A DNA stretch of 64,000 nt from Gammaproteobacteria bacterium. GTDB lineage: Bacteria > Pseudomonadota > Gammaproteobacteria > Natronospirales > REEB76. Location: the NCBI GenBank assembly GCA_036263155.1, contig DATAHN010000130.1, forward strand, positions 1,649 to 65,648, given 5' to 3'. The position numbers were made by a program, and so were the translations under genes. Shown in pieces: positions 5,403 to 64,000 of this stretch. A model generated the notes under the pieces. That model did no database searches, was not told the origin of the DNA, and worked only from the letters and a program-made list of their open reading frames with translations. The stretch's first letter is position 1; each line of letters begins with the position of its first letter.

Positions 5403-5466
5403 GCAAGCCCCTGAAAAGCAATCGAAAAACAGCGGGCATGATAGCACGCAGGGCTTTGGGACCTTA

Positions 5467-5472
5467 TATACT
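5467..5472 (+). promoter_or_regulatory. candidate -10 element (TATACT) 8 nt upstream of the lpxL ATG
   Basis: TATACT at 5467-5472 sits in an otherwise GC-rich divergent intergenic region. There is no Shine-Dalgarno before the ATG at 5481, and I found no convincing -35. Confidence 0.3.
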
Positions 5473-5480
5473 CGGCCGGC

Positions 5481-37222: not shown

Positions 37223-42163
<4,941 letters not shown>

Positions 42164-42167
<4 letters not shown>

Positions 42168-48874: not shown

Positions 48875-50274
48875 GCGTGGGCCCTGGCCGCGGGAGCGCC
48901 CATCTTATCAATGAACGCCAGGAGCTCATCGGTGCGGGCCCGCATCAGCGCCGCGTCGCGGCGGGCCTCCACGTTGAGCCGCAGGACCGGCTCGGTGTTG
49001 GACTTGCGCAGGTTGAAGCGCCAATCCTTGTATTCCAGGCTGAGGCCGTCAACCTGGTCCATGTGGGTCGCTGCAGGCTGGTACTTGGCCTCCACCGCCG
49101 CGATCACCCCATCCGGATCCGCCACCACCCGGTTGATCTCGCCGCTCACGGGGAATGCAGCCTGCTGCGACTCGACGAGCTGCTTCAGGCTCTGGCCGGT
49201 GCGGCTCACCAGCTCCGCCACCAGGAGCCAGGGAATCATGCCGCTGTCGCAGTAGCGGAAGTCGCGGAAATAGTGGTGTGCGCTCATCTCGCCGCCGTAG
49301 AGCGCGTCCTCGCGGCGCATGCGTTCCTTGATGAAGGCGTGCCCGGTCTTGCTCAACACTGGCAGGCCCCCGGCGGCCTTCACCGTCTCGATGGTGCCCC
49401 AGGTGAGGCGCGGGTCATGGACGATCTTCGCGCCCGGGTGGCTCGCCAGCAGCGTGCGCGCCAGGAGGCCAACCAGGTAGTAGCCTTCCACGAAGCCGCC
49501 GTCGCCGTCGAAGAAGAAGCAGCGGTCGAAGTCCCCGTCCCAGGCGATACCCATGTCGGCCTTGTGCGCGCGCACCGCCTCGGCGGTGACGTCGCGGTTC
49601 TCCGGCAGCAGGGGGTTGGGGATGCCGTTGGGGAAGTGCCCGTCGGGCTCATGCTGCAACTTCACGAACTTGAACGGCAGCTCGGGCTCCATCACGTCGA
49701 TGACAGGTCCCGCGCAGCCGTTGCCCGCATTGGTGACGATGGTTAGGGGCTTGAGTGCGCCCACGTCCACGTATTCCAGCAGGTGGCGCACGTAGTCGCG
49801 CTTGAGGTCCAGCGCCTTGCAGCGGCCGCGCTTGTGGGGCGTCTTCCATTCGGGCCGCGCCGCCACCCGTGCCTTGATCTCGAACAGGCCGCTGTCGCCG
49901 CTCACCGGGCGCGAGTCCTCACGCACCAGCTTCATGCCGTTGTAGCCCTGCGGGTTATGGCTGGCGGTGACCATGATGCCGCCGCCCAGGTTGCGGCTGA
50001 AGGTGGCGTGGTATACCTGCTCGGTGCCGCACAGGCCGATGTCGAGCACGTCGGCACCGGCGTCCTGCACGCCGCGCGCCACGGCGGCGGCGAGCTCGGG
50101 GCTGGAGAGGCGCACGTCACGGCCCACCGCCACGCGCTTCGGGCCCGTGAGCTCCACGAAGGCGCGGCCGATGGCATAGGCGATGTCCGCGTCCAGTTCC
50201 TCGGGGACGCGGCCGCGGATGTCGTAGGCCTTGAAGGCGGCGCCCAGGCGGGCGGCCAGGTCGGTGGCTGTCAT
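48871..50274 (-). CDS. manB: phosphomannomutase/phosphoglucomutase
   Basis: 467 aa with the active-site loop TASHNP and the metal loop DGDFDR. It overlaps the manC start. Confidence 0.9.
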   Translation of the reverse strand: MTATDLAARLGAAFKAYDIRGRVPEELDADIAYAIGRAFVELTGPKRVAVGRDVRLSSPELAAAVARGVQDAGADVLDIGLCGTEQVYHATFSRNLGGGIMVTASHNPQGYNGMKLVREDSRPVSGDSGLFEIKARVAARPEWKTPHKRGRCKALDLKRDYVRHLLEYVDVGALKPLTIVTNAGNGCAGPVIDVMEPELPFKFVKLQHEPDGHFPNGIPNPLLPENRDVTAEAVRAHKADMGIAWDGDFDRCFFFDGDGGFVEGYYLVGLLARTLLASHPGAKIVHDPRLTWGTIETVKAAGGLPVLSKTGHAFIKERMRREDALYGGEMSAHHYFRDFRYCDSGMIPWLLVAELVSRTGQSLKQLVESQQAAFPVSGEINRVVADPDGVIAAVEAKYQPAATHMDQVDGLSLEYKDWRFNLRKSNTEPVLRLNVEARRDAALMRARTDELLAFIDKMGAPAARAHA

Positions 50275-50331
50275 ATATAGAGGGGCCGGGCCCGCGACAG
50301 GACCGGCGGCGGCGTTGCTTATGGAAGGCGG

Positions 50332-50337
50332 ATTATA
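50332..50337 (-). promoter_or_regulatory. candidate -10 element (perfect TATAAT on the minus strand) upstream of manB
   Basis: The reverse complement of 50332-50337 is TATAAT. It lies in the 81-nt gap after the wbpM-like gene, and I saw no good -35. Confidence 0.3.
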
Positions 50338-50355
50338 GACCGTGGGGCGCGGGGC

Positions 50356-52248
50356 TCACGACTTTACCAGGCGCAGGGCGACGCGGCCCGGGCCCTGTTC
50401 CCCGCTCTCGGCCTGGGGCGTGAACTCAGGCACCAGCGCGCGCAGCTGCGCCTTGGCCCGCTCCGGGTCCGCCGCCACCGCCTGCAGGCTGTCGATGCCG
50501 GCATTCAGCACGTCGAGTTGGGCCGGCACCGCGTTGGCCAGCAGCAGCTTGGGATGGGTGGTGCCCTTGAGCTCCTCGCGGGTGTAGAAGAGCTCCTCGT
50601 GCATCTTCTCGCCGGGCCGCAGGCCCGTGTACACGATCTGGATGTCCTGGTGGGGCCTGAGGCCCGAGAGCTGGATCAGCTTCTCGGCCAGGTCGCGGAT
50701 GCGCACCGGCTCGCCCATGTCCAGCACGAAGATCTCGCCGCCGCGGCCGATGGCGCCGGCCTGCATGATGAGGCTGGCGGCCTCGTGGATGGTCATGAAG
50801 TAGCGGGTGATGTCCGGGTCGGTGACGGTGACCGGGCCGCCGGCGGCGATCTGCCGCTCGAACAGCGGCACTACCGAGCCGTTGGAGGCCAATACGTTGC
50901 CGAACCGGGTGGTGACGAAGTGGGTGCCGGCGTCGCGGTTAAGCGCCTGGCAGTAGAGCTCGGCCACGCGCTTGGTGGTGCCCATCACGTTGGTGGGGTT
51001 CACCGTCTTGTCGGTGGAGATCAGCACGAACTTGTCCACGCCATGGCGTAGCGCCGCGTCGGCGATGACGCGGGTACCGAAGATGTTGTTGCGGATGCCC
51101 TCTGCGACGTTCTCCTCCACGATCGGCACGTGCTTGTAGGCGGCGGCGTGGAAGATGATCTCGGGCTTGACCTGGGCGAACAGCGTCTCCACCGCGGTCT
51201 CGTCCTGGATGTTGCCGAGCGCGCTGGTGAACACCAGCGAGGGCGCGGTGGCGGCCAGCTCCTGGTCGATGCTGTAGAGGTTGTACTCGCTGTTGTCCAT
51301 CACCACCAGGAGCGCCGGGTCATGGCGGCTGATCTGGCGGCACAGCTCGGCGCCGATGGAGCCGCCGCCGCCCGTCACCAGCACGCGCTTGCCGCGCAGG
51401 AAGTCTGAAATGGCGCGCGAGTCCAGCACCACGGGGTCGCGACCCAAGAGGTCCTCGACCGTGACGGGGCGGAGGCGCGAGACCTCGACACGGCCGTCGG
51501 CCAGTTCCGTGAGGGAGGGCAGCGTGCGACAGGGCACATGCACCTCGTTGCACATCTGCACCACCCGGTCCATGGTCTTGCGCGAGGCCGCGGGCATGGC
51601 GATGAGCACGATGTTCGCGTCGTAGGCGCGCACCAGGCGAGCGATGTCGTCGAGGCGGCCGCGCACCCGCACGCCCTGCACCTCGTGGCCCTGCTTCTCG
51701 GCGGCGTCATCCACCAGCGCCACCGGCAGGAACGGCCCATGGCGACGCAGGTCGCGGATCAGGAGCTCGCCGGCGCGGCCGGCACCGACGATGATGGCGC
51801 GCGCGGTGCTCTCGTCGCCGAAGGTCATCCAGCGGTCCTTGAGCACGCGGTACAGCATGCGGCTGCTGCCGAGGCCGATCGCGAGCAGGATCGGGTACAG
51901 CAGCAGCACCGAGCGCGGCACGCCCTGCAGGCGGCCGAACAGGAATGCCGCCAGCACGGTGGCGAGCGCGCCCAGCACCGTAGCCTTGAGGATGCGCATC
52001 AGGTCTGGGATCGAGGCGTAGCGCCAGATGCCGCGGTAGCAGCCGAACATCCACAGCGTGAGCGCGTGGGCCGGCAGCGCCATGCAGGTGATGAGCAGCA
52101 TGCCGCCGAAATAGATGTGCGGGATCGGGGTGAGGTTGAAGCGCACCCAGTAGGCGAGCAGTACGGCGACCGGGATCCACAGCAGATCGTGGAGGAACAC
52201 GGTCCACCGGCTGCGCAACAGCAACCACCCGTCTCGTCTAGAGCCCAT
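50356..52248 (-). CDS. membrane-anchored nucleotide-sugar 4,6-dehydratase (CapD/WbpM/PglF-like)
   Basis: 630 aa with N-terminal TM helices and two Rossmann regions (VTGGGGSIG). It follows the WbpM-type architecture. Confidence 0.85.
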   Translation of the reverse strand: MGSRRDGWLLLRSRWTVFLHDLLWIPVAVLLAYWVRFNLTPIPHIYFGGMLLITCMALPAHALTLWMFGCYRGIWRYASIPDLMRILKATVLGALATVLAAFLFGRLQGVPRSVLLLYPILLAIGLGSSRMLYRVLKDRWMTFGDESTARAIIVGAGRAGELLIRDLRRHGPFLPVALVDDAAEKQGHEVQGVRVRGRLDDIARLVRAYDANIVLIAMPAASRKTMDRVVQMCNEVHVPCRTLPSLTELADGRVEVSRLRPVTVEDLLGRDPVVLDSRAISDFLRGKRVLVTGGGGSIGAELCRQISRHDPALLVVMDNSEYNLYSIDQELAATAPSLVFTSALGNIQDETAVETLFAQVKPEIIFHAAAYKHVPIVEENVAEGIRNNIFGTRVIADAALRHGVDKFVLISTDKTVNPTNVMGTTKRVAELYCQALNRDAGTHFVTTRFGNVLASNGSVVPLFERQIAAGGPVTVTDPDITRYFMTIHEAASLIMQAGAIGRGGEIFVLDMGEPVRIRDLAEKLIQLSGLRPHQDIQIVYTGLRPGEKMHEELFYTREELKGTTHPKLLLANAVPAQLDVLNAGIDSLQAVAADPERAKAQLRALVPEFTPQAESGEQGPGRVALRLVKS

Positions 52249-52264
52249 CTGAATCCGTTCCTCT

Positions 52265-53290
52265 TTAAGTCGGCGCGCGTCGGCGCTCGAGCACGTTCAC
52301 GTACGCGACGAGCACCAGGTAGACCGCCGCCGCCCACCCCAGCAGGAGTCCCTGAACTCCTGTTTCAGTGAAACAAAAGCCAGCCACGGCTAGCAAGCTA
52401 CATTTTAACATAAGCCCGTATTCCCAGAGTACCACCCTGCGGTGACTCCAGCCCAACCCCACCAAGCGCTGATAGAAGTGCCCCCGGTGGGCCTGCCAGG
52501 GCCGCGAGCCATGCACGGCACGACGTATCACCGTCCAGGTGGCGTCCACCACGAAGGGCGAGAACACCAGCAGTCCCAACCAGAGGGGGAAGAGGCCTTG
52601 CCGTTCCGCCCAAAGAAGGAACAAGGCCACCAGCAGGCCCAGGCTCCCCGAACCTACGTCCCCCATGAACAGGCGGGCCGGCGGGAAGTTGAAGGGCAAG
52701 AAGCCCCCCGCTGCTGCTGCCACCAGCAATGCCACGCAGGTGAACACAGGCGCATGGGCCAAGAAGCCCAAGAGCGCGAACGTTCCGAAGCCGATGACGG
52801 CCATGCCGCCGGCGAAGCCGTCCATCCCGTCCATGAAGTTATACAAGTTGATCAGCCAGACGGTCAGCAGCAGGCTGAACGCCATGAGCACCCCATGGGG
52901 TGCCTGCCATTCCCATCCCGGCAGGAGATGCAGGGATTCGAGCGCATACCCGCCCCAGTCCACCAATCCCAGAGCCGCAAGCACGTGCACCAGGAGACGC
53001 AGCCACACGGGCAGCCGCCAGACATCATCGGCGAAGGAGACGGTCGCCACCATCACCAGCGGCGCCGCCACCCAACCCAGGCCGGGCACATGCAGACCGG
53101 TGGCGAGCAGGCCTGCGGCGAGGCCCGCCAGGATCGCGAGGCCGCCGGAGCGCGGCGTCGCGCCGGAATGGAGCGAGCGTGCATTGGGCAAGTCCAGCAA
53201 CGCGAACCGCCCCCGGTAGCGGCTCAGGAAGCGGGCCAGCGCGGCGCTCGCGACGAACGCAAGGACGATCGAGAGCGCAACACGCGTCAC
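52265..53290 (-). CDS. undecaprenyl-phosphate HexNAc-1-phosphate transferase (WecA/WbpL family, polyprenol-phosphate initiating enzyme)
   Basis: 341 aa and polytopic. Has the NLYNFMDGMDG motif typical of the MraY/WecA family. Confidence 0.85.
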   Translation of the reverse strand: MTRVALSIVLAFVASAALARFLSRYRGRFALLDLPNARSLHSGATPRSGGLAILAGLAAGLLATGLHVPGLGWVAAPLVMVATVSFADDVWRLPVWLRLLVHVLAALGLVDWGGYALESLHLLPGWEWQAPHGVLMAFSLLLTVWLINLYNFMDGMDGFAGGMAVIGFGTFALLGFLAHAPVFTCVALLVAAAAGGFLPFNFPPARLFMGDVGSGSLGLLVALFLLWAERQGLFPLWLGLLVFSPFVVDATWTVIRRAVHGSRPWQAHRGHFYQRLVGLGWSHRRVVLWEYGLMLKCSLLAVAGFCFTETGVQGLLLGWAAAVYLVLVAYVNVLERRRAPT

Positions 53291-54126
53291 GGCATCGGCT
53301 CCGGCGTGAACGGCCGCGGCCGGATACCGAGCGCCTGCTCCGTTGCAGCGCAGTCGAACACCATGTCCCGGTTCATGCGTTCCGCCACCTCCGGCGTGAG
53401 GGCGCGGTAACGAGGCAAGAGGCGCGCGGTGGCGATGGCGGCGCGGTAAAGGAAGACCGGCACCGGCAGGATGCGCGGCTCGCGTCCCAGCGCCCGGAAG
53501 ATGCGCTCCAGCATGGCGCGGTAGCTCAGGGTCTCACCGCCGGCGATCTCGTAGGCTCCCGACTGCGGCAGCGTGAGTGCCGCCACGCAGGCGGCGGCGA
53601 GATCGTCCGCGTGCAGCGGTTGGCGCATGCCCCGCCCCGGCCAGGCCAGCGGAAAGAAGCCGATGCGGCGGATGAGTGCGGCGATGCGCGCCACGTTCTT
53701 GTCGCGCCGGCCATCGTAGACCAGCGTCGGCCGGAGCAGCGTGTAGACCATGCCGCGGGCGCCACAGGATCCGATCATCCCCTGCTCCGCCTCCCGCTGG
53801 TGGCGCACCAGCTCCCGTTCGCGGTGCGAGGCCGAGTCCACCTTGGTGTAGACGCTGGTGGTGCCGATGGCCACCACCCGGCGCAAGCCCGCGGGCGCGT
53901 CCCGCAGCAGCCGCGGCAGCAGCGGCAGGGGCGCCAGATGGATGAGTGCCTGAGTATCTTCGAGCGCGGCGTCCCACACGGGATCCCGGGCTACATCGGC
54001 CTGATGCCATGCACTGTCGGGATGAGGCCGGCGGCTCAGTACCGTGACCTCATGGCCCGCGCGGGCGAGGCGCGGCAGGAGGTAATCTCCCACCACGCTG
54101 CTGCCCCCGGTCACCAGCACGCGCAC
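53287..54126 (-). CDS. NAD(P)-dependent epimerase/dehydratase-family (SDR) protein
   Basis: 279 aa with an N-terminal VLVTGGSSVVG Rossmann motif. It is located between the WbpL-like gene and a GT2 gene. Confidence 0.7.
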   Translation of the reverse strand: MRVLVTGGSSVVGDYLLPRLARAGHEVTVLSRRPHPDSAWHQADVARDPVWDAALEDTQALIHLAPLPLLPRLLRDAPAGLRRVVAIGTTSVYTKVDSASHRERELVRHQREAEQGMIGSCGARGMVYTLLRPTLVYDGRRDKNVARIAALIRRIGFFPLAWPGRGMRQPLHADDLAAACVAALTLPQSGAYEIAGGETLSYRAMLERIFRALGREPRILPVPVFLYRAAIATARLLPRYRALTPEVAERMNRDMVFDCAATEQALGIRPRPFTPEPMP

Positions 54127-54130
54127 GAGC

Positions 54131-55000
54131 TCAGCTCCGCCGCAGCCGGACGATGGGCGCGAGCAGCAGGAAGCGCGACCAGATGCCGAGCCACACCAGC
54201 GCCGTGAGCCAGGCGGGGCTCGCGGCTCGCTGGAACTTGGAGAAGTAGCGCCACATGCCGCGGTGCTTGTGCCAGAGCACGAACACCGGCCGGCCGCGGC
54301 TGGAGGCGCCCTGCGCGTGGCTCACGCTCACGTCCGGCACGAACAGCACTCCTGCCCCGGCCTGCTGCACGCGCTTGCAGAGATCGAGGTCCTCGCAGTG
54401 CAGGAAGTAACCTTCGTCCCAGCCTCCGAGCCGTTCGAAGAGGTCACGGCGTATCAGGAGGCAGGCACCGGAGATGGCTTCCACCGGCACGGGACCGTCC
54501 GGCAGCGCTGTGCCGGTGAGGTCGAAGCCGCTCACCTTGCCGTCGGTGCCCGGACCGTCAAGCTTGAGCACGCGCATCAGCGCGCGGCGCGTGTCCGGCA
54601 GGTGGCGGCGGCAGCCGCGCTGCTCGCTGCCGTCGCTGTTCAGCACCAATGGACCCAGCATGCCCGTCTCGGGATGCGCCTCAAGCACCGCCACCAGGCG
54701 CTCGAGCGCGCCCGCCGGCATGCGACAGTCGGGGTTGATGAACAGGAGGTAGCGGCCGGTGGCTGAGGCGGCGCCCTGGTTGCAGGCGGCACCGAAACCG
54801 CGGTTCACGGGATTGCGCGCCAGCACCACGCCGGGATGCACACCGGATTCCAGAAACGCGAGGCTGCCATCGGCGGAGGCATTGTCCACCACCACGGTGC
54901 GGACCAGGCCCGCCTGGCCGGCGAGGGATTCCACCAGGCCGCGCAGCAGCGGACCGGCGTTGTAGTTGACGGTGACCGCCGTGACCGCCGCGGCGGACAC
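54131..55000 (-). CDS. family 2 glycosyltransferase
   Basis: 289 aa. Has VTVNYN, VVVDNASADGS, NRGFGAACNQG and a DxD-like region (HCEDLDLC), as in the rhamnosyltransferase-like GT2 subgroup. Confidence 0.85.
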   Translation of the reverse strand: MSAAAVTAVTVNYNAGPLLRGLVESLAGQAGLVRTVVVDNASADGSLAFLESGVHPGVVLARNPVNRGFGAACNQGAASATGRYLLFINPDCRMPAGALERLVAVLEAHPETGMLGPLVLNSDGSEQRGCRRHLPDTRRALMRVLKLDGPGTDGKVSGFDLTGTALPDGPVPVEAISGACLLIRRDLFERLGGWDEGYFLHCEDLDLCKRVQQAGAGVLFVPDVSVSHAQGASSRGRPVFVLWHKHRGMWRYFSKFQRAASPAWLTALVWLGIWSRFLLLAPIVRLRRS

Positions 55001-55001
55001 C

Positions 55002-56063
55002 TCAGCCCTCGACGAAGTTGCGCATGAACAGGTCCATCACGTGCTGGGTCATGCCGCCCTGCACGTGCCTCAGGTCGTCCTCCCAGGCCATGCCCCGCTC
55101 CGAGTTCATGACGATCTCGTAGCTCGGGAAGTACTGCACGTTGGCGTGGGCCGAGGCGAAGTCCTGGGCCACCGCACGCAGCGTGGACTTGGAGTAGGTG
55201 TTCGCCACCACGATGTCCTGGCCGCTGAAGGTCGCCTGCAACGGTACCGGCGAGGTGGTCACCACCATCTGCAGCTCCGGGTGACCGTGGCGGCTGAGCA
55301 GCGCGTGCAGCTGCTCCATGTTGTCCAGGTTCTGCAGGTAATTGGAGACCATGAACTCGTAGCGGCCCGGGTTCTGCTGCAGCATCTCCCTGTTGGGCGT
55401 GGTGTTGAGGTACGCTCCGGCCTGCTTGTCGTACCACACCTCCACCAGGCCCAGCGTCATGAATACCACGCGGCAGTCGCGGATGCGGGCGTTGACCTCC
55501 TGGATCAGCCGGCGGCGTTCCAAGGTCCCGGCCCGGTCCACCACTTCCAGGGTGGGGTTGATGTGCGGGTCGATGCAGCGCTTCGCATCCAGGTCCACGA
55601 GGCTCGCCTCGGGGAACTTCGCCGCCGGGTCCAGCGCCCAGGAGAGCTCGTTCAGCATCGAGTAGGTGGTGTACTTGTTCGTGAAGCCGAGGGCGGTGAC
55701 CTTGCCGTGGGTGGTGCTGAAGCGATTGAAATCCGTGGCGGCGCTCACCACCTGGAAGCCGCGACCCTTGAGCGCGTTCTCGATGCCGCGCGCGAAGCAA
55801 GAGCCGATGGCGAAGAGCTTGTCCTGCTTGTTTATCTTGAACTCCGGCTGCACCACCGCCGAAAAGCGCGGCTGGCGTAGGCGCTGGCAGGCGTAGGGAC
55901 CGGAGGCGTCCTTGAGGTCGATGCCGGCCTTGGACCAGCGGGTGTGCTCCTGGCCCGAGGACTGGGTGGCATGGGTTGCCGGGCGGTGACCGCTGAGGCG
56001 AGCGAACACCGCACGCAGGCGCGGATGGCTATCGAGGGTCTTGTCGAGGAATCCCATGGTCAT
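55002..56063 (-). CDS. GSCFA-domain protein (function unknown)
   Basis: Trimmed to the ATG at 56063 (MTMGFLDKT), 353 aa. It contains the eponymous FAIGSCFA motif. Confidence 0.7.
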   Translation of the reverse strand: MTMGFLDKTLDSHPRLRAVFARLSGHRPATHATQSSGQEHTRWSKAGIDLKDASGPYACQRLRQPRFSAVVQPEFKINKQDKLFAIGSCFARGIENALKGRGFQVVSAATDFNRFSTTHGKVTALGFTNKYTTYSMLNELSWALDPAAKFPEASLVDLDAKRCIDPHINPTLEVVDRAGTLERRRLIQEVNARIRDCRVVFMTLGLVEVWYDKQAGAYLNTTPNREMLQQNPGRYEFMVSNYLQNLDNMEQLHALLSRHGHPELQMVVTTSPVPLQATFSGQDIVVANTYSKSTLRAVAQDFASAHANVQYFPSYEIVMNSERGMAWEDDLRHVQGGMTQHVMDLFMRNFVEG

Positions 56064-56080
56064 GCTCCGTGCGCGGCGCT

Positions 56081-59000
56081 CTAGCCCGCCGCCTTGAGTT
56101 CCGCCTGCCGGTCGATGGAGGTGATCACCTCCGCGAGGCGTTCGCGGATCACCTCCGGCGAGTAGCGTTCCCGCACCACCCGCCGCCCGGCCTGCGACAT
56201 GCGCTGCCACAGCTCGGGGTCGGTGTAGGCGCGCACCACCGCGTCGGCGAAGCTCTGCGGGTCGTCGCCGATCAGCACCTCGCGCCCATCCTCCACGTAC
56301 ATGCCCTCAGCGGCGATGGAGGTCGCCACCACCGGCAAGCCGTAGCTGAAGCTGGTGCCGAGCTTGCCCTTGATGCCGGCGCCGAAGCGCAGCGGCGCCA
56401 CCATGAGGCGGCAGGAGTTGAAGTAGGGGGTGATGTCCTTCTGGAAGCCCAGCACCTGGATGTGGTCGCAGGCGAGATCGCGGATCTCCGCCGGGGGCCG
56501 CGAACCCAGGATCAGGAACCTGAGGTCCGGGATACGGCTCCTCAGCGCGGGCAGCACTTCGCGGCAGAAATACAGCACCGCTTCCACGTTGGGGTTGTGC
56601 TGGTAACCGCCGATGAACAGGATGTCGCGGCGTGCCTCGAAGCCGGGACCCTGCGGCTCCTCCGGGATGACCAGCTGCACCACGTGCACGTTGGCGCGCG
56701 GCGCCTCCTGGGCCAGGAGCTCCTTCTCCACCGGGCTCACCACGATGCTGGCGTCCGACTCGCGGATGAGCTTGAGCTCGTCGGCGCGGGTGCGCTCGGC
56801 GCGGTCGGCGATGAGCGGGTTGTTCTCCACCGCCGCCTGGCGGCGTTCGCGCAGATAGTGCAGGTCCACGGTGTCATAGATGACGCGCAGGCCGGGCGCG
56901 GCTTTCTTGAGGTGGTCGAGGTGACGGATCGCCACATAGGGCCGGCACAGCATGGCGAGCTGGAACTCGCCGGCGCGGGCCTTGATGAACTGGTCCACCG
57001 ACACGCAGTGCGGCTCGTACACGCACTCGATGCCGAGCCGTTGCAGGTCGCGGGTGTACTCGCCGTCGTGCAGCAGGTTGTCCGGCACGAAGGTGACCTT
57101 GTAGCCCAGGGACTGCAGCAGCTTCAGGTGGTAGAACTTCAGCAGCGAACCTGCGTCGTGGTCCGGACGCGGCGTGTTGGCGTCGATCACCAGCAGACGC
57201 TTGGTGACGCCGCGGTCCTTCTCCAGCAGCGGCAGCATGCCGTTGGGGCGGTGCGAGGCCAGCACGTCCTGCCAGCGTTCGTGCAGCTTCTTGAGATTCA
57301 CCACCTGGTACTTCTTCACGCCGGAGCCGAGGTCGGTGCCGGAGCTCACGCCCTCATAGTGCACGATGGTGGAGAGCGGCTGGTACAGGACCCTGAGGCC
57401 GCGCTTCCTCACCTGGAACGCGAGGTCGGTGTCCTCACAGTAGGCGGGTGCGTAGTGGCTGTCGAAGCCACCGAGCTCGCGGAACAGCGCCAGAGGCACC
57501 ATGATGCTGGCGCCGGAACAGTAGTCCACGTCCCGCAGGTAGTTGTACTCGGGACGGTCCGGGTCGTCGAAACGGCCATAGTTCCAGGCGGAGCCGTCGC
57601 GCCAGACGATGCCGCCCGCCTCCTGCAGGCGCCCATCCGGGTACACGAGCTTGGAACCCACCAGGCCCGCCTCGGGCACCTGGCCGAAGGTGGCACGCAA
57701 CTCGTCCAGCCATCCCGGCAGCACCTGAACGTCGTTGTTCAGGAAATACACGTAGCGGCCGCGCGCCGCGGCGGCGCCGGCGTTGCAGGCGCCGATGAAC
57801 CCGAGGTTCTGCTCGTTCTTGACCACCCGTATGCCCTTGCAACGGGCCAGCACCGTCGGGGTGTCATCTGACGAGCAGTCGTCCACCACGATCACCTCGA
57901 AAGGCGTCGTGGCGCCGACTGCGGCAATGGACTTCAGGCAGTGCAGCGTGTGGGCCACATTGTTGTAGACGGGGATCACCACCGAGACCTCAGGCGTCTC
58001 CGAGGTGGCGAGGACCAGACCCTCGCCCGCCAGCACCGCGGCCGGGCCCTTCGGGTCCACCTTGTCGCCCCGCACCGCGCGGGTCTTGTAGTCGGCGCTG
58101 CCGGGGGCGCCGGCGCCGAACAACCGGCCGAGGCTGCGGCGCAGGATCATTCGCAGGCGCATGGGCATGGGGATGCGGTAGTACACGTCGCGCGCCACCA
58201 GCCTCAGCATCCCCGCGTCCATGAAGCGCAGCTTGGGGATGGAGCGCAGCATCACCATCAGGCCGCGCAGCGGCGCGGTCACGCGCCAGGAGGTGGAGTG
58301 GTACAGGGCCTGCAGTTCCTGCTTGAGATGCGCGAGTTCGCGCAGCTCGCCGCGCTGCCATTCCAGCTCCTGGGCCCTGGCCAGCGCGAGGCCGGCGTGG
58401 TGGCCGCGCTCCTCGGCGATGTGCTTGATCTCCTGGTCGCGGGCCTGGATCAGGCGGTCCTTGTCGGCCAGGGCCGCGTCGCGTGCGTGCAGCTCGGCAT
58501 ACAGCGCGCCCAGGATGTGGTCGAAGCCGGCGCTCAGGCCAGAGAGCTCCTTGCCGAGCCGGTCGAGTTGGGTCGCGTCGGCGCCACCGGCCAAGGTCTT
58601 GTAGGTGTCGCGGGTAAGCCGCCCGAGTTCGCCGCCCGGCATCAGCTCCGGCTTCTGGTGGTGGCGCAGCTCCTTGTGCACGAAGCCGGCCATGCCCTGG
58701 TCCAGGGCCCGCTCGTCCGCGGGCCAGGCGAGTCCCAGCTTCTCCCAGGCGGGCTTGAGCGCGCCGCGCCAGTCCGCCAGCACCGCGGCGTAGTCCACCA
58801 CGGCGCGCGGGCCGCCGCGGCTCGCCGCCTCCGCGTCCAGAAGGTAGCGCAAAGTCAGCAGTGCCGACTTCTCCGGCGCGAAGCCGTTACGCGCCTTGAG
58901 GGAGGCGATGATCTCAGCGGGATCACGGGTCGCGATCAGGTAGCAGGGCTGCCAGCCGAGCTCCCGCAGCAGGTCCTGCCACAGCGGCAGCATGCGGCAG

Positions 59001-59323
59001 AGACGCGGATCCTTGACGCAGGCGAGTTCCGCCGCGCCGAAGTCGCGCTGCAGCACCGCCTTCAGTGCATCCCGCTGCGGACGGACGGTCTCGTAGTTCC
59101 ACCACTTGTCCGGCAGCGCCCGCACGTCGTCCCAGGCATAGCCGAGCTTGCCCAGTATCTCGTCATGGATGCGCACGATCTCGTCGTGCTCCCAGAACCC
59201 CATCACGTTGTCCTGGCCCGCCGCCATCATGCGCTCGCCGAGTTCGGCGCCCAGCAGGCGGCAGCTGCCCGCCAGCACCGAGGTGCCGCTGCGATGCATG
59301 CCGAGGATCATCAGCATCTTCAT
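56081..59323 (-). CDS. multidomain sulfotransferase-like / coiled-coil / GT2 / GT4-like glycosyltransferase
   Basis: Trimmed to the ATG at 59323 ([15 protein letters not shown]), which overlaps the upstream stop as ATGA. 1080 aa. Residues 1-245 have a P-loop-type sulfotransferase motif GMHRSGTS plus [12 protein letters not shown]. Residues about 255-342 are a heptad-rich helical stretch ending in [11 protein letters not shown]. Residues 445-660 are GT2 ([30 protein letters not shown]). Residues 705-1075 are GT4-like ([18 protein letters not shown] ... [21 protein letters not shown]). Confidence 0.75.
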
Positions 59324-60267
59324 GCGGAACGTCCCCACAGTGCGGACAGACGCGCGCCCAGGCCGCGGCGGATGCGCTCCACCGGCGGCGCCTGGAGGCG
59401 CCGACAATGCTCTTCAAAGAGCCGCTGCATCTCGGCGTGGGCGCCGGCATCGCCCTGCTCCAGGCCCTCGGGCGCCGCCAGCATGTCACGGTAGAGCTGC
59501 TCGGCCTCGCGGGCGGCGGCGGTGGAGGTATCCACCGGCATCGAATCCTTCTCCACCTCGGAACTATTGATCTTGTTGTCGAGCGGCTTGAGGCAGTCAG
59601 CGGAATAAGCTTCGCCCAGGAACGCCAGCACACGCCGGAACGCCTGCTCCGGCTCGCCGGTGAAGTCCTCGTAGCGCACGCGCAGCATGCGCGCGCGGCC
59701 GAGCGCCCGCTCGCCGAGCCAGGCGGCACGGGTGAGCCGGAGCCAGGTGCGATAGGCCTCATCGTGGGCGTAGTCGCGGGCGCCGGTGCGGGAGAACTTC
59801 ATGAGCGAGCGTGCCACGTCGTGCGGGTTGCGCAGCAGGTGGATGAAGCGCGCGCCGGGAAACAGGCGCAGCAGCGGGTATATATAGTGGGAATTCTCGG
59901 GGGTCGCGTCGGCCCAGCGGCGCTTGGGATCGGCCGGGGAACGGCGCCGGTGCATCTCGCCCTTCACCTTGCGCTCGGTGTGCTCGATGAGCCGCTGGTT
60001 GGCGGTGCCCATGAGGTGCTGCAGGCCTTCGCCGAACAGGCGGTAGAACTCGTCCTCGTCCATGCCGATCTGGCCCAGGTGCGAGAAGCCGCCGTTCACG
60101 GTGGCGAGGCGATAGAGGTTGTCCAGGTCCACGCCCAGACGCGCCAGCCAGTTGGTCTCCGGCAGGTTGACGATGTTGGGGTGCTGGCCGAGGCACCAGC
60201 AGAAGATGCTGGTACCGGAGCGGTAGGAACCGACCACGAACACCGGGCTGTGGCTATGGTCCGACAT
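59320..60267 (-). CDS. sulfotransferase family protein
   Basis: 315 aa with a 5-prime-PSB-like motif [10 protein letters not shown] and a 3-prime-PB-like motif [13 protein letters not shown]. Confidence 0.75.
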
Positions 60268-60327: not shown

Positions 60328-61515
60328 TCAAATCCCCCTGCCAGTCCCCGGCGGCGAAAACATCCCCGGCTCGCCGTCCCGGGTGTAGCCCATGGCGGCG
60401 AGCTCGATGCCGGCGATACGCCAAACCAGCGCCCGGTCACGGGCGGTCAGGCTCTCGCGCCATTCCCCCGCCACGCCCTTGCGCATCACGTCCTGCCCGG
60501 CCACGCCCCGCGGCCGCCCGCTCTGGGCCTCGAAGGAGCTGGCTTTGGCCACCGCCGCCACCGTGGCCGGTGAGGCGTCGGCACCGAGCGACTGCAGGAG
60601 ACGCGTGAACTGGCCGTCGAAATCCGTGAGCAGATCCTCGTAGCGCAGCACCGTGAGTTCGCCCCGCTCCGCAGCCTTGAGCACCCGCCGCACCCGGTCC
60701 GCCCACACCGAGAGGGAGCGGCCGAGGCGCCAGTCCTCGCCGTACCCCGCCAGGCGACGCAACGCGGTGACGCCGCGGATGCCCGCTTCCCGCGCCAGCG
60801 CCACCGGCTTCATGAAGCTCACGTGGCTGTGCTGCCAGGCCATGCGCCGCTCACGCATGAGCTGGCGGTAGTGGAACGCGGATACCGCCGCGTCCCGGCC
60901 GTCCCGCACGATCGCTACGCGCGGCGCCTGGGGCCGCCACTCCCTGAGCGCGTCCAGGCACAGGATCTGGTCCGCGCCCTTCAGCACCAACCGCTGGCCC
61001 GGCTTGAATGCAGGTGCCAGTGCCGCCAGGAACCCGTCCATGGCCGCCGCGGGCGTGCCCGCCTTACGCAGCGCCTCGAAGGCCGCCGCCAGCAGTGCCG
61101 GCGGGAAGTTGAGGAAGCCCACCGGCTTGCCCCGGGAGGCCCGCTCACCGCCCGTAGCGGAGCCTTCCGTCAGCATCGCCGTCAGCGTCCGCACCGCGGC
61201 CTCCGCCGGCAGATCGTAGAGGGATGCAACGTCGCGGTGGCGGCCGTCGGGGAGATAACGATGAAACGCGCCAGGCGCGAGTTGCTCGGCCCTGAGCGCG
61301 CAGAACGCGCTCCTGCCGAACACGTTGGCGAGCCGCTCGCGCGGCGGCAACAGGTGCCGGCCGCTACGGCCGGCCACAGACCGCAGCACGTCCAGCTCAC
61401 GCAGGGCGGAGAACTCGGGATGGGCCGCCAGCGCCGAGAGCAGCCAGCTGGTGCCGTTCTTGTAGAGGCCGACGATGAAGACCGGGTCGGATCCGGACGT
61501 GGGACGCGGGCTCAC
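60328..61515 (-). CDS. sulfotransferase domain protein
   Basis: 395 aa. Has IVGLYKNGTSW (5-prime-PSB-like), IVRDGRDAAVS (3-prime-PB-like) and the C-terminal RKGVAGEWRE motif. Its start overlaps the wzt stop (ATGA). Confidence 0.75.
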   Translation of the reverse strand: MSPRPTSGSDPVFIVGLYKNGTSWLLSALAAHPEFSALRELDVLRSVAGRSGRHLLPPRERLANVFGRSAFCALRAEQLAPGAFHRYLPDGRHRDVASLYDLPAEAAVRTLTAMLTEGSATGGERASRGKPVGFLNFPPALLAAAFEALRKAGTPAAAMDGFLAALAPAFKPGQRLVLKGADQILCLDALREWRPQAPRVAIVRDGRDAAVSAFHYRQLMRERRMAWQHSHVSFMKPVALAREAGIRGVTALRRLAGYGEDWRLGRSLSVWADRVRRVLKAAERGELTVLRYEDLLTDFDGQFTRLLQSLGADASPATVAAVAKASSFEAQSGRPRGVAGQDVMRKGVAGEWRESLTARDRALVWRIAGIELAAMGYTRDGEPGMFSPPGTGRGI

Positions 61516-62225
61516 GGCCGGCGGCCGCCGGGCCGCAGGCTCTGCTGGTAGCGTTTCACCACCGCATCGGGCTCGCCCACCTCCACCGTCACGCCCTGGT
61601 CCACCCAGGCGACGCGGTCGCAGAGCTCCATGATGGTCTCGGGATGGTGGGTCACGATCACCACGGTGCGGCCGGAGGCGATCTTCTCGCGCATGGCGGC
61701 GGAGGATTTCTCCTTGAAGGCGGCGTCGCCGACGCCGAGCACCTCGTCGATCAGCAGCACGTCCGGGTCCGCCTGCACCGCCACCGTGAAGCCGAGGCGC
61801 GCGCGCATGCCGGAGGAGTAGGTCCGCACCGGCTCGTCGATGAACTCCTGCAGCTCGGCGTAGCGCACCATCTCATCCATGCGCGCCTCCACCTCGCGGC
61901 GGGTGAGGCCGAGCAGGATGCCGGACAGCACCGCGTTCTCACGCCCGGTGAGCGCCGGGATGAAGCCCGCCTGCAGCGCCAGCAGGGAGACCCGCGCGGT
62001 GTGGCGGATCACCTCGCCCGTGTCCGGCGCCAGGATGCCGGCCAGGAGGCGCAGCAGCGTGCTCTTGCCGGCGCCGTTGCGGCCTATGATGCCGAGCGTC
62101 TCGCCGTGCTTCAGGCCGAAGCTCACGTCGTGCAGCGCCCAGAACGCGTGGTGGCGCATGAAGCCGGCCTTGCGCCGGTAGCGCACGCCCACGTTCCTGA
62201 GTTCGATGATGTTGTCGCCGCTCAT
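61512..62225 (-). CDS. wzt: polysaccharide ABC exporter ATP-binding protein (Wzt/KpsT-like, nucleotide-binding domain only)
   Basis: 237 aa with Walker A GRNGAGKST, signature YSSGMRARL and Walker B LLIDEV. There is no C-terminal extension. Confidence 0.85.
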   Translation of the reverse strand: MSGDNIIELRNVGVRYRRKAGFMRHHAFWALHDVSFGLKHGETLGIIGRNGAGKSTLLRLLAGILAPDTGEVIRHTARVSLLALQAGFIPALTGRENAVLSGILLGLTRREVEARMDEMVRYAELQEFIDEPVRTYSSGMRARLGFTVAVQADPDVLLIDEVLGVGDAAFKEKSSAAMREKIASGRTVVIVTHHPETIMELCDRVAWVDQGVTVEVGEPDAVVKRYQQSLRPGGRRP

Positions 62226-62228
62226 GGT

Positions 62229-62993
62229 TCAGCCCAGCATCAGCTTGGGATAGATGCGGTCGTAGCGCCGTAACAGCCATAGCGCCAGCCCATACAGCAG
62301 CAACGAGGCGGCCACCACCCAGGCGAGGCTGCCCCAGTCGGGCCAACGCCTGCCCAGCAGCACGTCGCGGAAACCGGTCACCACGTGCACCATGGGGTTG
62401 AATCGCAGCACCGCCTGCACGCTCGGCGGCAGCTCCGCCACGTCCTTGATGATGCCGGACATGAACATCATCACGATCAAGCCGTTGCTGACCACGAGGT
62501 CCAGGTCCGGCAAGAGCGGCACCACCGCCGCCACCAGCGAGGACAGGGCCAGCACCAGCAGGAGCTCCACCAGCACCAGCGCCGGCAGCGCCACCCAGGT
62601 GGCGCTCACACCATGGCTGGCGGCGGTGAACAGCATGAGCAGGGCGAGGATGATGATGAACTTGATGCCGTTGGTGACCAGCACCAGCCAGGGCAGCACG
62701 TACTTGGGCAGGTAGACCTGTTGGATCAGACCGCTGTTGGCCTCGATGATCCTGGAGCCGTTCTGCACCGAGCTCGCGAACCACTTCCAGGGCACCAGGC
62801 CGCAGAGCAGGAACAGCGCGTAGTGGCTGCCGCCGGCGCGCACCCCGAGGCCGAACGCGACATAGAAGGCCAGCATGTAGAGCAAGGGTTCCAGCACCCA
62901 CCAGACGAAGCCCACGAAGGCGCGCGCGGCCTCGGCCCTGAGTTCCGCCATGCCCTTGTACCAGACGAGTTCGGCGTACCCCGGCCGGCGCAT
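62229..62993 (-). CDS. wzm: polysaccharide ABC exporter permease (ABC-2 type, Wzm-like)
   Basis: 254 aa with 6 TM segments and a typical Wzm N-terminus (FVGFVWWVLEPLLYMLAF). It is directly upstream of wzt. Confidence 0.85.
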   Translation of the reverse strand: MRRPGYAELVWYKGMAELRAEAARAFVGFVWWVLEPLLYMLAFYVAFGLGVRAGGSHYALFLLCGLVPWKWFASSVQNGSRIIEANSGLIQQVYLPKYVLPWLVLVTNGIKFIIILALLMLFTAASHGVSATWVALPALVLVELLLVLALSSLVAAVVPLLPDLDLVVSNGLIVMMFMSGIIKDVAELPPSVQAVLRFNPMVHVVTGFRDVLLGRRWPDWGSLAWVVAASLLLYGLALWLLRRYDRIYPKLMLG

Positions 62994-63047: not shown

Positions 63048-64000
63048 TTATAACCCGACGTGGAACCGCCCTACCTCGATGCGGTGGGCATCACCGTTGC
63101 AGCTCAGGCGCAGCACATGATCGCCCGGCAGGAACAACGGCAGCCGGCCGGTCATCACCGCATCGAGCATGTCGTTGCCCTTGTCCTCGATCCTGAGCTC
63201 CTCGAAGCCGAGCCAGGCATGCACCCGCCGCGCGCCGCCGCGGTACCGGATGTGGAACACCGGGCTGCCGTCCTGCTGGGGGTTGAATCCGTGCCCCCAG
63301 CGCGTGGACCGGGGCTCCCACTCCGTCACCTGGATGTCGCAGGGCTGGCTCGGGTTCGCGTCCGAGAGGTAGGAGAGGCCCAGGGACGGGATATCCAGGG
63401 CCCGCTCCGGGTCGCCGTACAGCATCGCCGTGGTGTAGCCGGCGCCGCCCACGAGGTCGGTGCGGAACACCTGCATGTCCGCGTGCCAGCGGTTCACCTG
63501 GCGACAGGTCTCGCTGCGGGTGTCCGGCGCACAGAACCCCGGCGTACCCCGGTCCGGCACCACCAGCAGCCGGCCGTTGCGCATACGCGGGTGCAGTCCC
63601 GGCGGCGGTGTGAACACGTCGAGCTCCGTGGGTCCCTGCACGTGCAGCAGCCCGAGCAGCAGGCGCGGCAGCTCGTACAGCGAAAGGTGCCCAAGCTTGA
63701 GCGGGCCGTTGCGCCCGTCGATCACCAGGAGCGGGGTGCTCTGGTGCACCTCCAGCATGGCCGGCGTGAACTCCTCCTCCCGGAGGCCCGTGAGCCCCGA
63801 GCGGTGGAACGGTGCGAAGCCATCCCCCAGCACCGGCAGGTGATCGCCGAAAGCCACGATCAGCGCATCCGGGTCGCGCGCCCGCAGGCGCTGGATGTAG
63901 GCGGCGAGCTCGGCGGTGTCGTAGTACACGCTGTCGGCATAGCCGTCGATGAGCCTGTCCTTCGAGCTGCCGTGGATACGCGACGGGCGCTTGCGCGCGT
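63048..64000 (-). CDS. sulfatase-fold (alkaline phosphatase superfamily, LTA-synthase/phosphoglycerol-transferase-like) protein, 5-prime end outside the window
   Basis: The reading frame stays open to the window edge. Has FGDHLP and the LSLYELPRLLLGLL context typical of the C-terminal part of sulfatase-fold transferases, plus an extra C-terminal domain of about 140 aa. Confidence 0.6.
   Translation of the reverse strand, partial: ARKRPSRIHGSSKDRLIDGYADSVYYDTAELAAYIQRLRARDPDALIVAFGDHLPVLGDGFAPFHRSGLTGLREEEFTPAMLEVHQSTPLLVIDGRNGPLKLGHLSLYELPRLLLGLLHVQGPTELDVFTPPPGLHPRMRNGRLLVVPDRGTPGFCAPDTRSETCRQVNRWHADMQVFRTDLVGGAGYTTAMLYGDPERALDIPSLGLSYLSDANPSQPCDIQVTEWEPRSTRWGHGFNPQQDGSPVFHIRYRGGARRVHAWLGFEELRIEDKGNDMLDAVMTGRLPLFLPGDHVLRLSCNGDAHRIEVGRFHVGL

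Follow-up and report, generated by a model that had tools for sequence, protein, structure and literature searches.

O-antigen chain length influences serum resistance and the interactions of bacteria with phages and hosts. In the 64,000-nucleotide stretch of gammaproteobacterial DNA analysed here (the window), a single gene encodes a sulfotransferase-like domain, a long helical segment and two glycosyltransferase domains. The question raised by this locus is whether one protein could polymerize a repeat unit, measure the growing chain through a coiled-coil ruler and cap it by sulfation, as had been put forward in an initial annotation of the window.

Domain architecture of the 1080-residue protein

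The open reading frame on which the initial annotation was based is real and encodes 1080 amino acids on the minus strand (Table 1). Its ATG (59323) overlaps the stop codon of an upstream sulfotransferase gene in an ATGA arrangement. The opposite strand also carries long open reading frames across the gene, which a GC content of 68% would lead one to expect. About 55 full-length homologues with 58–96% identity support the minus-strand gene, and the fusion of sulfotransferase and glycosyltransferases is kept down to 36% identity in the homologue search. The full-length AF2 model has a pLDDT of 87.9. The four-part domain order given in the initial annotation is correct according to Pfam, AF2 and Foldseek; the domain borders coincide to within a few residues with the Pfam HMM annotation and the AF2 model, and the peptides quoted at that time are all found in the translation (GMHRSGTS; LADKDR...QALY, aa 285–341; and the 11-residue peptide at the junction).

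Table 1. Coordinates of the features of the large protein and of the surrounding cluster (positions in the window).
Feature	Position	Strand	Evidence
Whole gene, sulfotransferase + coiled coil + junction + GT2 + GT4, 1080 aa	56081..59323	(-)	ORF, translation
N-terminal sulfotransferase-fold domain, aa 1-245	58589..59323	(-)	AF2 pLDDT 95; Foldseek; weak PF13469
5'-phosphosulfate-binding loop GMHRSGTS, aa 8-15	59279..59302	(-)	conservation
R133-x7-S141 motif	58901..58927	(-)	R133 and S141 invariant in the 76- and 102-member alignments
Coiled-coil stalk, aa 250-341	58301..58576	(-)	AF2 single helix; heptad Fourier peak
Junction motif [11 protein letters not shown], aa 343-353	58265..58297	(-)	conservation, profile search
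Basic helical segment, aa 344-401	58121..58294	(-)	AF2 helices; charge and hydrophobic-moment scan
Flexible linker, aa 402-443	57995..58120	(-)	no AF2 secondary structure; pLDDT <50 at 403-413
GT2 (GT-A fold) glycosyltransferase, aa 444-700	57224..57994	(-)	PF00535, PF13641, fold
GT4-type (GT-B fold) glycosyltransferase, aa 705-1080	56084..57211	(-)	PF13692, PF00534, fold
Stand-alone sulfotransferase, 315 aa	59320..60267	(-)	PF13469, E 1.6e-29; stop overlaps large-gene start
Second stand-alone sulfotransferase, 395 aa	60328..61515	(-)	PF00685, PF13469; start overlaps wzt stop
Wzt, ABC-transporter ATPase, 237 aa	61512..62225	(-)	PF00005 only
Wzm, ABC-2 permease	62229..62993	(-)	PF01061
GSCFA protein	55002 to about 56063	(-)	Pfam; 353 aa in L090
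GT2	54131-55000	(-)	Pfam
Epimerase/reductase	53287-54126	(-)	Pfam
WecA/WbpL-type initiating transferase	52265-53290	(-)	Pfam
WbpM-type dehydratase	50356-52248	(-)	Pfam
Phosphomannomutase	48871-50274	(-)	Pfam
ManC	47441-48874	(-)	Pfam
O-antigen ligase (Wzy_C domain), 591 aa	40392..42167	(-)	PF04932

A structural search of the PDB with the N-terminal domain using Foldseek revealed that its best matches are all sulfotransferases, namely the CurM ST, TPST1/2 and the olefin-synthase ST, with an E-value of 2.5e-6, a probability of 1.0 and a TM-score of about 0.55. The domain lies under the Pfam gathering threshold (PF13469, 15 bits vs a cut-off of 27), and several of its homologues do exceed the Pfam sulfotransferase threshold. 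A sequence search of the PDB with the N-terminal 441 residues gave no match at E <= 10. The profile search of the PDB with family alignment A2 returned chiefly coiled-coil proteins (apolipoproteins, myosin), which supports the presence of a coil, together with marginal sulfotransferase matches.

The residues presumed to bind the sulfate donor are conserved. Within the 5'-phosphosulfate-binding loop, R11, S12, G13, T14 and S15 are invariant in the alignment of 76 full-length homologues, and G8, M9, H10, R11, G13, T14 and S15 in that of 102 family members. The R133-x7-S141 motif has the position and spacing of what we take, from knowledge of the family and not from a superposition, to be the 3'-phosphate-binding motif of sulfotransferases; E45, K104 and R145 are also invariant across the 102 diverse family members. 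The model assigns residues 1–245 with confidence to the Sulfotransfer_3/TPST-like fold, and the domain would act as a PAPS-dependent sulfotransferase.

The helical segment that follows had been read as a coiled coil, and its heptad phasing supports this. AF2 represents the stalk as a single 92-residue helix that would measure about 13.7 nm if straight, in a monomer model with low pLDDT in this region. The hydrophobicity of the stalk displays a sharp Fourier peak at a period of 3.5 (z = 7.6 vs shuffles), with no peak at 3.4 or 3.6, and the same heptad signal is present in 84% of 114 family stalks. This test, applied to the whole stalk and family-wide, was used in place of an earlier sliding-window heptad score, which is weak over the stalk (z <= 2.3). 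Among the 76 homologues the stalk interval, which as measured takes in non-coil residues too, is as short as 98 and as long as 392 residues, between flanks of constant size: the sulfotransferase spans about 220 residues and the linker from the junction to the GT2 domain has a median of 103. By analogy, the stalk may oligomerize.

The stalk is followed by a junction motif with the family consensus S-x-S-W-[RKQ]-x-T-x-P-[LVF]-R, for which the Pfam scan gave no entry. S345 and W346 are nearly invariant in the 76-homologue alignment, and alignment A3 shows no variation in the motif. An exhaustive profile search with the motif retrieved 8402 representative clusters; a word-indexed search with junction profile A3 returned short proteins only (44–178 aa), which did not reveal the partner domains. 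The basic segment, with 13 K/R vs 2 D/E, is modelled as four helices (344–361, 363–367, 370–383 and 388–401) and, by analogy with the C-terminus of WbdD, may serve as a docking region or anchor it peripherally to the membrane.

The C-terminal part of the protein consists of two glycosyltransferase domains, which span residues 446–700 (GT-A) and 705–1079 (GT-B) in the AF2 model. In the GT2 domain, PF00535 covers residues 447–570 (96.5 bits, cut-off 23.3) and PF13641 residues 444–658; the fold matches GT-A enzymes in Foldseek, and the acidic residues D482, D486, D531, E630, D631 and D633 are invariant in the 76 full-length homologues. The GT4 half adopts a two-Rossmann GT-B fold, with PF13692 at residues 899–1035 (87.2 bits, cut-off 27) and a target-normalised Foldseek TM-score of about 0.7 against MshA, PglA, BshA and a mannosyltransferase.

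The O-antigen cluster and its Wzt

Judged by its gene content, the locus is an ABC-transporter O-antigen cluster: besides wzm and wzt it contains two other sulfotransferases, an initiating transferase, genes for mannose and a ligase. The gene order from 47441 to 56063 is the same in locus L090, which together with L010 and L007 forms the group of closest relatives. Orthologues of the 315-residue sulfotransferase occupy the same position, upstream of the large gene, in all three of these loci; this enzyme and the N-terminal domain of the large protein are alike only in the P-loop. The 395-residue sulfotransferase is found in L090 and has no kinship with the other two beyond the P-loop. The presence of two further unrelated sulfotransferases means that sulfate need not be limited to the chain end. 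No PAPS-synthesis genes were found among the scanned ORFs of the window; the L007 locus has a PAPS synthase of its own.

According to Pfam, the Wzt of this locus has no C-terminal carbohydrate-binding module (Wzt_C), and the protein is likewise short and devoid of the cap-binding module in L010, L007 and L090 (orthologues of 236–250 aa). A search for such a module elsewhere in the locus found none. Two candidates for a hidden module were rejected: a 293-residue ORF at 63048–63929 encodes the C-terminal portion of a protein of the LtaS/sulfatase family, and the 395-residue protein after wzt is a sulfotransferase throughout in the Pfam scan.

Relatives of the stalk protein and the proposed mechanism

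The family-wide comparison links the sulfotransferase-stalk unit to Wzt_C. Stand-alone sulfotransferase-stalk-SWR proteins are located directly downstream of wzm and a Wzt_C-bearing wzt, among others in loci L001 and L006; this placement was seen in 14 of the 80 species-level genomes and in two metagenome loci. The extension itself, checked with Pfam, is present in 20 of the 29 loci having a Wzt, and also in L001, L006 and L009. Where a Wzt_C-bearing wzt is adjacent, the stalk protein is the sole sulfotransferase within 10 kb in 15 of 16 loci, as one would anticipate if the mark is unique to the chain end. Some members of the family, in L003/L004, are situated away from glycan loci. Proteins of the same layout with a different N-terminal enzyme also occur: a methyltransferase in P0392 (methyltransferase-SWR-GT2-GT4), P0440, P0419 and P0416, and a pyruvyltransferase in P0215. 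Partner domains of the junction proteins were taken from Pfam scans, regular expressions for methyltransferase and GT2 motifs being too insensitive.

By analogy with characterized systems, the large protein is probably a polymerase-terminator resembling WbbB and WsaE in type, with sulfate as a new capping chemistry; we give this reading an even chance. The WecA/WbpL-type enzyme of the cluster would start an undecaprenyl-diphosphate-linked chain, and its elongation at the non-reducing end would be the task of the GT2 and GT4 domains, with rhamnose and/or mannose as probable constituents of the repeat. Behind the SWR junction, the basic segment would keep the glycosyltransferase end at the membrane, and the heptad stalk, with its roughly 92 residues (13–14 nm), would oligomerize and hold the PAPS-dependent sulfotransferase off the membrane. 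The sulfotransferase would be reached only by chains that are long enough; sulfation of their terminal sugar would block further extension, and the product would be exported by the ABC transporter (Wzm/Wzt). The polymerize-and-cap scheme of the initial annotation is therefore upheld in part: the architecture, the analogy to WbdD and WbbB, the variation in stalk length, the module swaps and the Wzt_C neighbours of the relatives speak for it, whereas the Wzt_C hallmark fails at this locus, and the two extra sulfotransferases, the low AF2 confidence of the stalk helix as a monomer and the family members away from glycan loci count against it.

The short Wzt without Wzt_C, here and in the three closest relatives, would also fit a protein whose N-terminal sulfotransferase decorates internal or sub-terminal residues and terminates nothing. 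The coiled coil would then only oligomerize or scaffold the polymerase, and chain length would reflect the balance of polymerization and export through a Wzm/Wzt pair devoid of a cap-binding module, the situation in Klebsiella O2a-type systems. The three unrelated sulfotransferases in one cluster, which suggest a heavily sulfated product, and the PAPS synthase of L007, which implies a high sulfate demand, point in the same direction. We nevertheless consider decoration rather unlikely: an enzyme modifying every repeat would gain nothing from a distal place on a stalk that varies fourfold in length, relatives of the domain family stand in the classical terminator position beside a Wzt_C-bearing Wzt, usually as the sole sulfotransferase, and swaps with methyl- and pyruvyl-transferases suit a capping chemistry.

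A variable stalk between constant flanks is also hard to account for if the sulfate cap is real and the stalk is no ruler, with the cap serving charge, phage or immune evasion, or ligase recognition and length being set elsewhere. The absence of a cap-reading module from Wzt would agree with such an arrangement, as would WsaE, whose capping in vitro is independent of length (PMC2943079), but the stalks of WbdD and WbbB are demonstrated rulers (PMC11231755), and we regard a cap without a ruler as improbable. Least credible is an N-terminal domain without catalytic activity or with a non-glycan substrate, in a fusion irrelevant to chain control. Its score below the Pfam threshold and the occurrence of a family member in a non-glycan context would be in line with this, yet the invariance of the PAPS-binding loop, of R-x7-S and of E45, K104 and R145 across 102 diverse members, the confident sulfotransferase-like fold and the persistence of the fusion down to 36% identity make it very hard to sustain.

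Extending the polymerase-terminator reading to the whole family, we tentatively propose, with somewhat more doubt than belief, that many bacteria stop the chains of ABC-dependent glycans by sulfating the non-reducing terminal sugar, a chemistry so far uncharacterised that would be performed by a dedicated family of GMHRSGTS sulfotransferases on variable coiled-coil rulers. The S-x-S-W-R-x-T-x-P-L-R junction would serve as a shared adaptor linking capping enzymes of any kind (sulfo-, methyl- or pyruvyl-transferase) to polymerase and membrane, and in the lineage of the window the ruler would operate in the absence of the Wzt cap-reading checkpoint, so that control of length could be separated from proofreading at export. 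If this is confirmed, sulfate would join methyl, methyl-phosphate and Kdo as a bacterial stop or measure signal for surface polysaccharides. The proposal is testable in cultured bacteria with a sulfotransferase-stalk gene after a Wzt_C-bearing wzt, namely in Dyella choica, Dyella psychrodurans, Frateuria sp., Rhodanobacter geophilus and Sulfuricella sp. T08. In the lineage of the window, which has the stalk without the cap-reading module, one could ask whether ruler and export checkpoint are separable, and the conserved junction motif provides a handle to find terminator proteins of any chemistry in genomes.

Comparison with known chain terminators

The full-text literature search yielded no account of a sulfotransferase terminator, within a coverage that does not extend to the census of terminators by Mann et al. 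(2019, Glycobiology) or to a JBC review of 2020. On the sequence evidence, the 1080-residue protein is analogous and not homologous to WbdD and WbbB, the likeness being architectural only. Every experimentally characterised capped system has a cap-binding module on Wzt (PMC11231755); this module and sequence homology to WbdD/WbbB are the features of the WbdD/WbbB/ORF6-O7 type that were not found here.

WbbB of Klebsiella pneumoniae O12 and Raoultella terrigena combines, in the order proposed here, an N-terminal terminating module, a coiled coil and two polymerising glycosyltransferases in one chain encoded at a wzm/wzt locus (PMC11231755). By contrast, its terminator is a beta-Kdo glycosyltransferase and its Wzt bears a cap-binding module, and no sequence similarity to WbbB was detected when the N-terminal 441 residues were searched against the PDB. 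The ORF6 protein of Klebsiella pneumoniae O7, made up of a methyltransferase-kinase, a coiled coil and two GT2 domains, has the layout proposed here, with an N-terminal non-glycosyl capping enzyme, a coiled coil and C-terminal polymerase glycosyltransferases (PMC11231755), and differs in its methyl-phosphate cap, an extra carbohydrate-binding-like domain and a Wzt with the cap-binding module. WbdD, which acts with WbdA in E. coli O9a/O8 and Klebsiella O3/O5, has a terminator on a coiled-coil ruler with a membrane-binding C-terminal region, a design similar to the one proposed here, and its gene order wzm-wzt-terminator is that of the stand-alone relatives in L001, L006, L012 and L025. Its polymerase, unlike here, is a separate protein recruited by WbdD, and its chemistry is that of a kinase and a methyltransferase.

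Sulfation as a stop signal reportedly has an animal counterpart in the HNK-1 sulfotransferase acting on matriglycan, where sulfation of the terminal sugar halts the elongation of a repeating disaccharide polymer; that enzyme, in contrast to the protein described here, is a separate eukaryotic Golgi protein with neither a coiled-coil ruler nor ABC export. Klebsiella O2a-type ABC systems resemble the present locus in having a Wzt without a carbohydrate-binding module, and are not known to have a coiled-coil protein, a cap or a terminator.

WsaE of Geobacillus stearothermophilus NRS 2004/3a, from S-layer glycan synthesis, has an N-terminal capping methyltransferase fused to two polymerising glycosyltransferase domains, and the wzm, wzt and wsaE genes of its locus overlap (PMC2943079); it departs from the present protein in its 2-O-methyl cap, its Gram-positive host and a glycan carried on protein. 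In published prototypes the terminator sits at the coiled coil's distal end (PMC11231755), and the protein of this locus shows the same arrangement, with a distal candidate terminator on a coiled coil, glycosyltransferases of predicted polymerising function after the stalk and Wzm/Wzt encoded in the locus.

Domain organization of the large protein

The large gene is a minus-strand open reading frame encoding 1080 residues, and its ATG and the stop codon of the sulfotransferase gene ahead of it overlap as ATGA, a pattern typical of translational coupling. Long spurious ORFs cover it on the opposite strand because the G+C content of the window is 66–71%; Pfam domains argue for the minus-strand gene, and so do about 55 full-length homologues with 58–96% identity and further ones at 36–46%. 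The initial annotation described a sulfotransferase-like domain fused to a coiled-coil and two glycosyltransferase domains. This layout is confirmed, and all the peptides quoted were found where it had placed them. HMM annotation assigns the GT2 domain (PF00535 at residues 447–570, 96.5 bits; PF13641 at 444–658) and, within the GT4-like domain, PF13692 (residues 899–1035, 87 bits), which covers the C-terminal half of a GT-B enzyme of the GT4 type. The segments of the AlphaFold2 model, calculated with 76 homologues as input (pLDDT 87.9), are listed in the table. Foldseek matches the GT-A domain to GT-A enzymes, and the GT-B domain to the GT4 enzymes MshA, PglA, BshA and a mycobacterial mannosyltransferase with target-normalised TM-scores of about 0.7.

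Alone, the N-terminal domain scores 15 bits against PF13469, below the cut-off of 27, and a PDB sequence search with it returned no match. Its model on 102 family members has a pLDDT of 95, and its top PDB fold matches are all sulfotransferases (E 2.5e-6, probability 1.0), among them the CurM sulfotransferase domain, human TPST2 and TPST1, and an olefin-synthase sulfotransferase. The loop G8-M-H-R-x-G-T-S15 is invariant in 102 diverse members, as are R133, S141, E45, K104 and R145. We take the R/S-G-T-S element to be the 5'-phosphosulfate loop, and the R-x7-S spacing of R133 and S141 to be the 3'-phosphate-binding motif of sulfotransferases. The domain is thus identified as a sulfotransferase, and both PAPS binding and activity are very probable.

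For the 90 residues separating the sulfotransferase domain from the junction motif, Fourier analysis of hydrophobicity gave z = 7.6 at a period of 3.5, the neighbouring periods of 3.4 and 3.6 being without signal, in agreement with the anticipated coiled-coil. The same sharp peak is present in 84% of 114 family stalks (58–492 residues long; mean z 6.7). In an alignment of 76 full-length homologues the sulfotransferase part keeps a constant length of about 220 residues, the junction-to-GT2 linker is nearly constant (median 103, range 67–154), and the stalk interval spans 98–392 residues. The stalk of the query would be about 13.7 nm long if it formed a straight helix.

Coordinates of genes in the window, segments of the large protein and modules of proteins with the same layout
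Feature	Position or order	Strand or source
PF00884-protein ORF, window edge	63048-64000	(-)
wzm	62229-62993	(-)
wzt	61512-62225	(-)
Stand-alone sulfotransferase, operon mate of large gene	60328-61515	(-)
Stand-alone sulfotransferase, directly upstream of large gene	59320-60267	(-)
Large gene	56081-59323	(-)
Junction motif of large gene	58265-58297	(-)
GSCFA-family protein, maximal ORF	55002-56210	(-)
O-antigen ligase	40392-42167	
HldE-like ORF	3984-6335	(-)
Compact N-terminal domain	aa 1-245	AlphaFold2
Single uninterrupted helix	aa 250-341	AlphaFold2
Four short helices	aa 344-401	AlphaFold2
Disordered linker	aa 402-425	AlphaFold2
GT-A domain	aa 446-700	AlphaFold2
GT-B domain	aa 705-1079	AlphaFold2
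Same-layout protein P0392	methyltransferase (39-146), junction (449), GT2 (565), GT4 (1022)	N to C
Same-layout protein P0440	methyltransferase, junction, GT2, WbsX	N to C
Same-layout protein P0419	methyltransferase, junction, WbsX, GT1, GT2	N to C
Same-layout protein P0416	methyltransferase, junction, GT4	N to C
Same-layout protein P0215	pyruvyltransferase (61-286), junction (498), GT2, GT4	N to C

The junction motif and the N-terminal position

The stalk terminates at the junction, S-x-S-W-[RKQ]-x-T-x-P-[LVF]-R, a motif with no Pfam entry. It is followed by a 59-residue segment of moderate amphipathicity with 13 Lys/Arg versus 2 Asp/Glu. By analogy with the C-terminus of WbdD from E. coli O9a, which binds the membrane and recruits the polymerase (PMC11231755), this basic segment is a putative membrane anchor or docking region. 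A profile search of 1.84 billion proteins retrieved the junction in 8402 representative clusters at E <= 0.001, and a Pfam scan of 54 junction-motif proteins found GT2 in 26, GT4 in 19, SAM methyltransferases in about nine, RgpF in seven, WbsX in six and sulfotransferase domains in three. Some proteins (P0360, at 488/606/681, P0362, P0363 and P0374) carry two to three tandem copies 50–120 residues apart, and very small coiled-coil proteins of 44–178 aa also bear the motif.

Several proteins of the same layout have a methyltransferase or a pyruvyltransferase as their N-terminal module. Methyl and pyruvyl groups are caps that block extension, and swaps of this kind would be expected of an N-terminal position that accommodates chain-terminating enzymes. 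P0127 (1413 aa) has an additional sulfotransferase P-loop some 300 residues before the usual one, which suggests an extra sulfotransferase fused ahead of the large protein.

Genomic context

Gene order on one strand is wzm, wzt, two stand-alone sulfotransferases and the large gene, beyond which lie a GSCFA protein, a GT2, an epimerase/reductase and a WecA/WbpL-type initiating transferase; the cluster continues with a WbpM-type dehydratase, a phosphomannomutase and ManC. Housekeeping genes follow, and past them lies the O-antigen ligase. This is an ABC-transporter-dependent O-antigen cluster, the repeat unit of which likely contains rhamnose and/or mannose. Its three sulfotransferases, including the N-terminal domain, are alike only in the P-loop.

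A 96%-identical locus in a soil gammaproteobacterial MAG (L090) has two LtaS/sulfatase-family proteins and dTDP-rhamnose genes upstream. The two PF00884 proteins are in tandem (1968-6270 of L090) between the rhamnose genes and wzm, and the 293-aa ORF at the window edge is the C-terminal part of such a membrane protein of about 725 aa; possible roles of these proteins are the periplasmic addition of phospho-substituents and action on sulfate esters. The maximal GSCFA ORF (402 aa), directly downstream of the large gene, would overlap it; a start near 56063 is indicated because the L090 orthologue has 353 aa. A fused ATP-sulfurylase/APS-kinase (PAPS synthase) gene, at 1088-2815, heads the cluster of L007, a relative at 59% identity, and none was found among the window ORFs scanned. 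Positions 1-38000 hold ordinary gammaproteobacterial housekeeping genes, including those for an outer-membrane efflux protein, a WaaP-like LPS kinase, a two-component system, an RND pump, asparaginase, PmbA/TldD, YhdP, RNase G, holA, znuA and leuS. The HldE-like kinase and cytidylyltransferase domains of a 783-aa ORF start only at residue 324, so that its first 320 residues are an extension without annotation, or else the start has been overcalled.

The GMHRSGTS sulfotransferase family occupies at least 586 loci in species-representative genomes. Many members are stand-alone proteins of 324–722 residues with an N-terminal sulfotransferase, and in many of these the junction lies 15–30 residues before the C-terminus, which is the layout of WbdD. 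Among the 80 best genome loci, a Wzt-type ATPase is encoded within 10 kb in 29; in 20 of these 29 Wzt bears a C-terminal extension or the cap-binding module Wzt_C, and 14 of these 20 wzt genes are immediately upstream of the sulfotransferase-stalk gene. A Pfam check of 10 such Wzt proteins found Wzt_C in nine (above cut-off in eight). Among the hosts are Dyella, Frateuria, Rhodanobacter, Sulfuricella, Desulfosediminicola, an alphaproteobacterium and a planctomycete. At two loci (L001 and L006) the sulfotransferase-stalk gene overlaps the stop of a Wzt_C-bearing wzt, with wzm upstream. At 16 loci a wzt with Wzt_C adjoins the gene, and in 15 of them the stalk-bearing enzyme is the sole sulfotransferase within 10 kb, as a unique terminal mark would predict. 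A stand-alone member, P0079 (L003 / L004), occurs outside glycan loci, next to TPR-sulfotransferase and aryl-polyene-like ketosynthase genes.

Proposed function and comparison with known terminators

The most likely function of the large protein, which we hold with about even confidence, is that of a polymerase-terminator that caps with sulfate and measures length by its coiled-coil, as the initial annotation proposed. The main rival, in which the N-terminal sulfotransferase is tethered but only decorates the polymer and chain length is determined by the exporter, appears possible but rather doubtful. Fusion to polymerase domains alone does not prove a ruler. The capping proposal is supported in part, and the Wzt does not fit it: a cap-binding module is present on Wzt in every characterised capped system (PMC11231755), and the window Wzt, of 237 residues, consists of the ATPase domain only. 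The closest relatives (L010, L007 and L090) likewise have a Wzt without this module, and in them the large gene is directly preceded by an additional sulfotransferase gene; in the window there is a third sulfotransferase. It is reasonable to suppose that chains of this lineage carry internal sulfate as well. A checkpoint that reads sulfate would then serve no purpose, and none is present, while the stalk-mounted enzyme may still cap.

The significance lies mainly at the level of the family, where the evidence points to sulfate as a candidate capping chemistry, and in a widespread, unannotated junction motif; cultured organisms offer tests of both. In animals, the HNK-1 sulfotransferase reportedly caps matriglycan. 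No description of a bacterial sulfotransferase terminator was found in the literature searched, and a 2019 bioinformatic census (Mann et al.) may already list such candidates. An unexplained sulfotransferase-domain ORF adjoins wzt and wbbB in Aeromonas salmonicida (PMC4483657). As proposed for the large protein, terminator and polymerase reside in one chain in WbbB (Klebsiella O12), ORF6 (Klebsiella O7) and WsaE (Geobacillus). The large protein has no homology to the terminator modules of these proteins, and the Wzt of its cluster lacks the cap-binding module; it is therefore classed as analogous in architecture rather than as a family member. Its stand-alone relatives, in turn, resemble WbdD in their mode of working.
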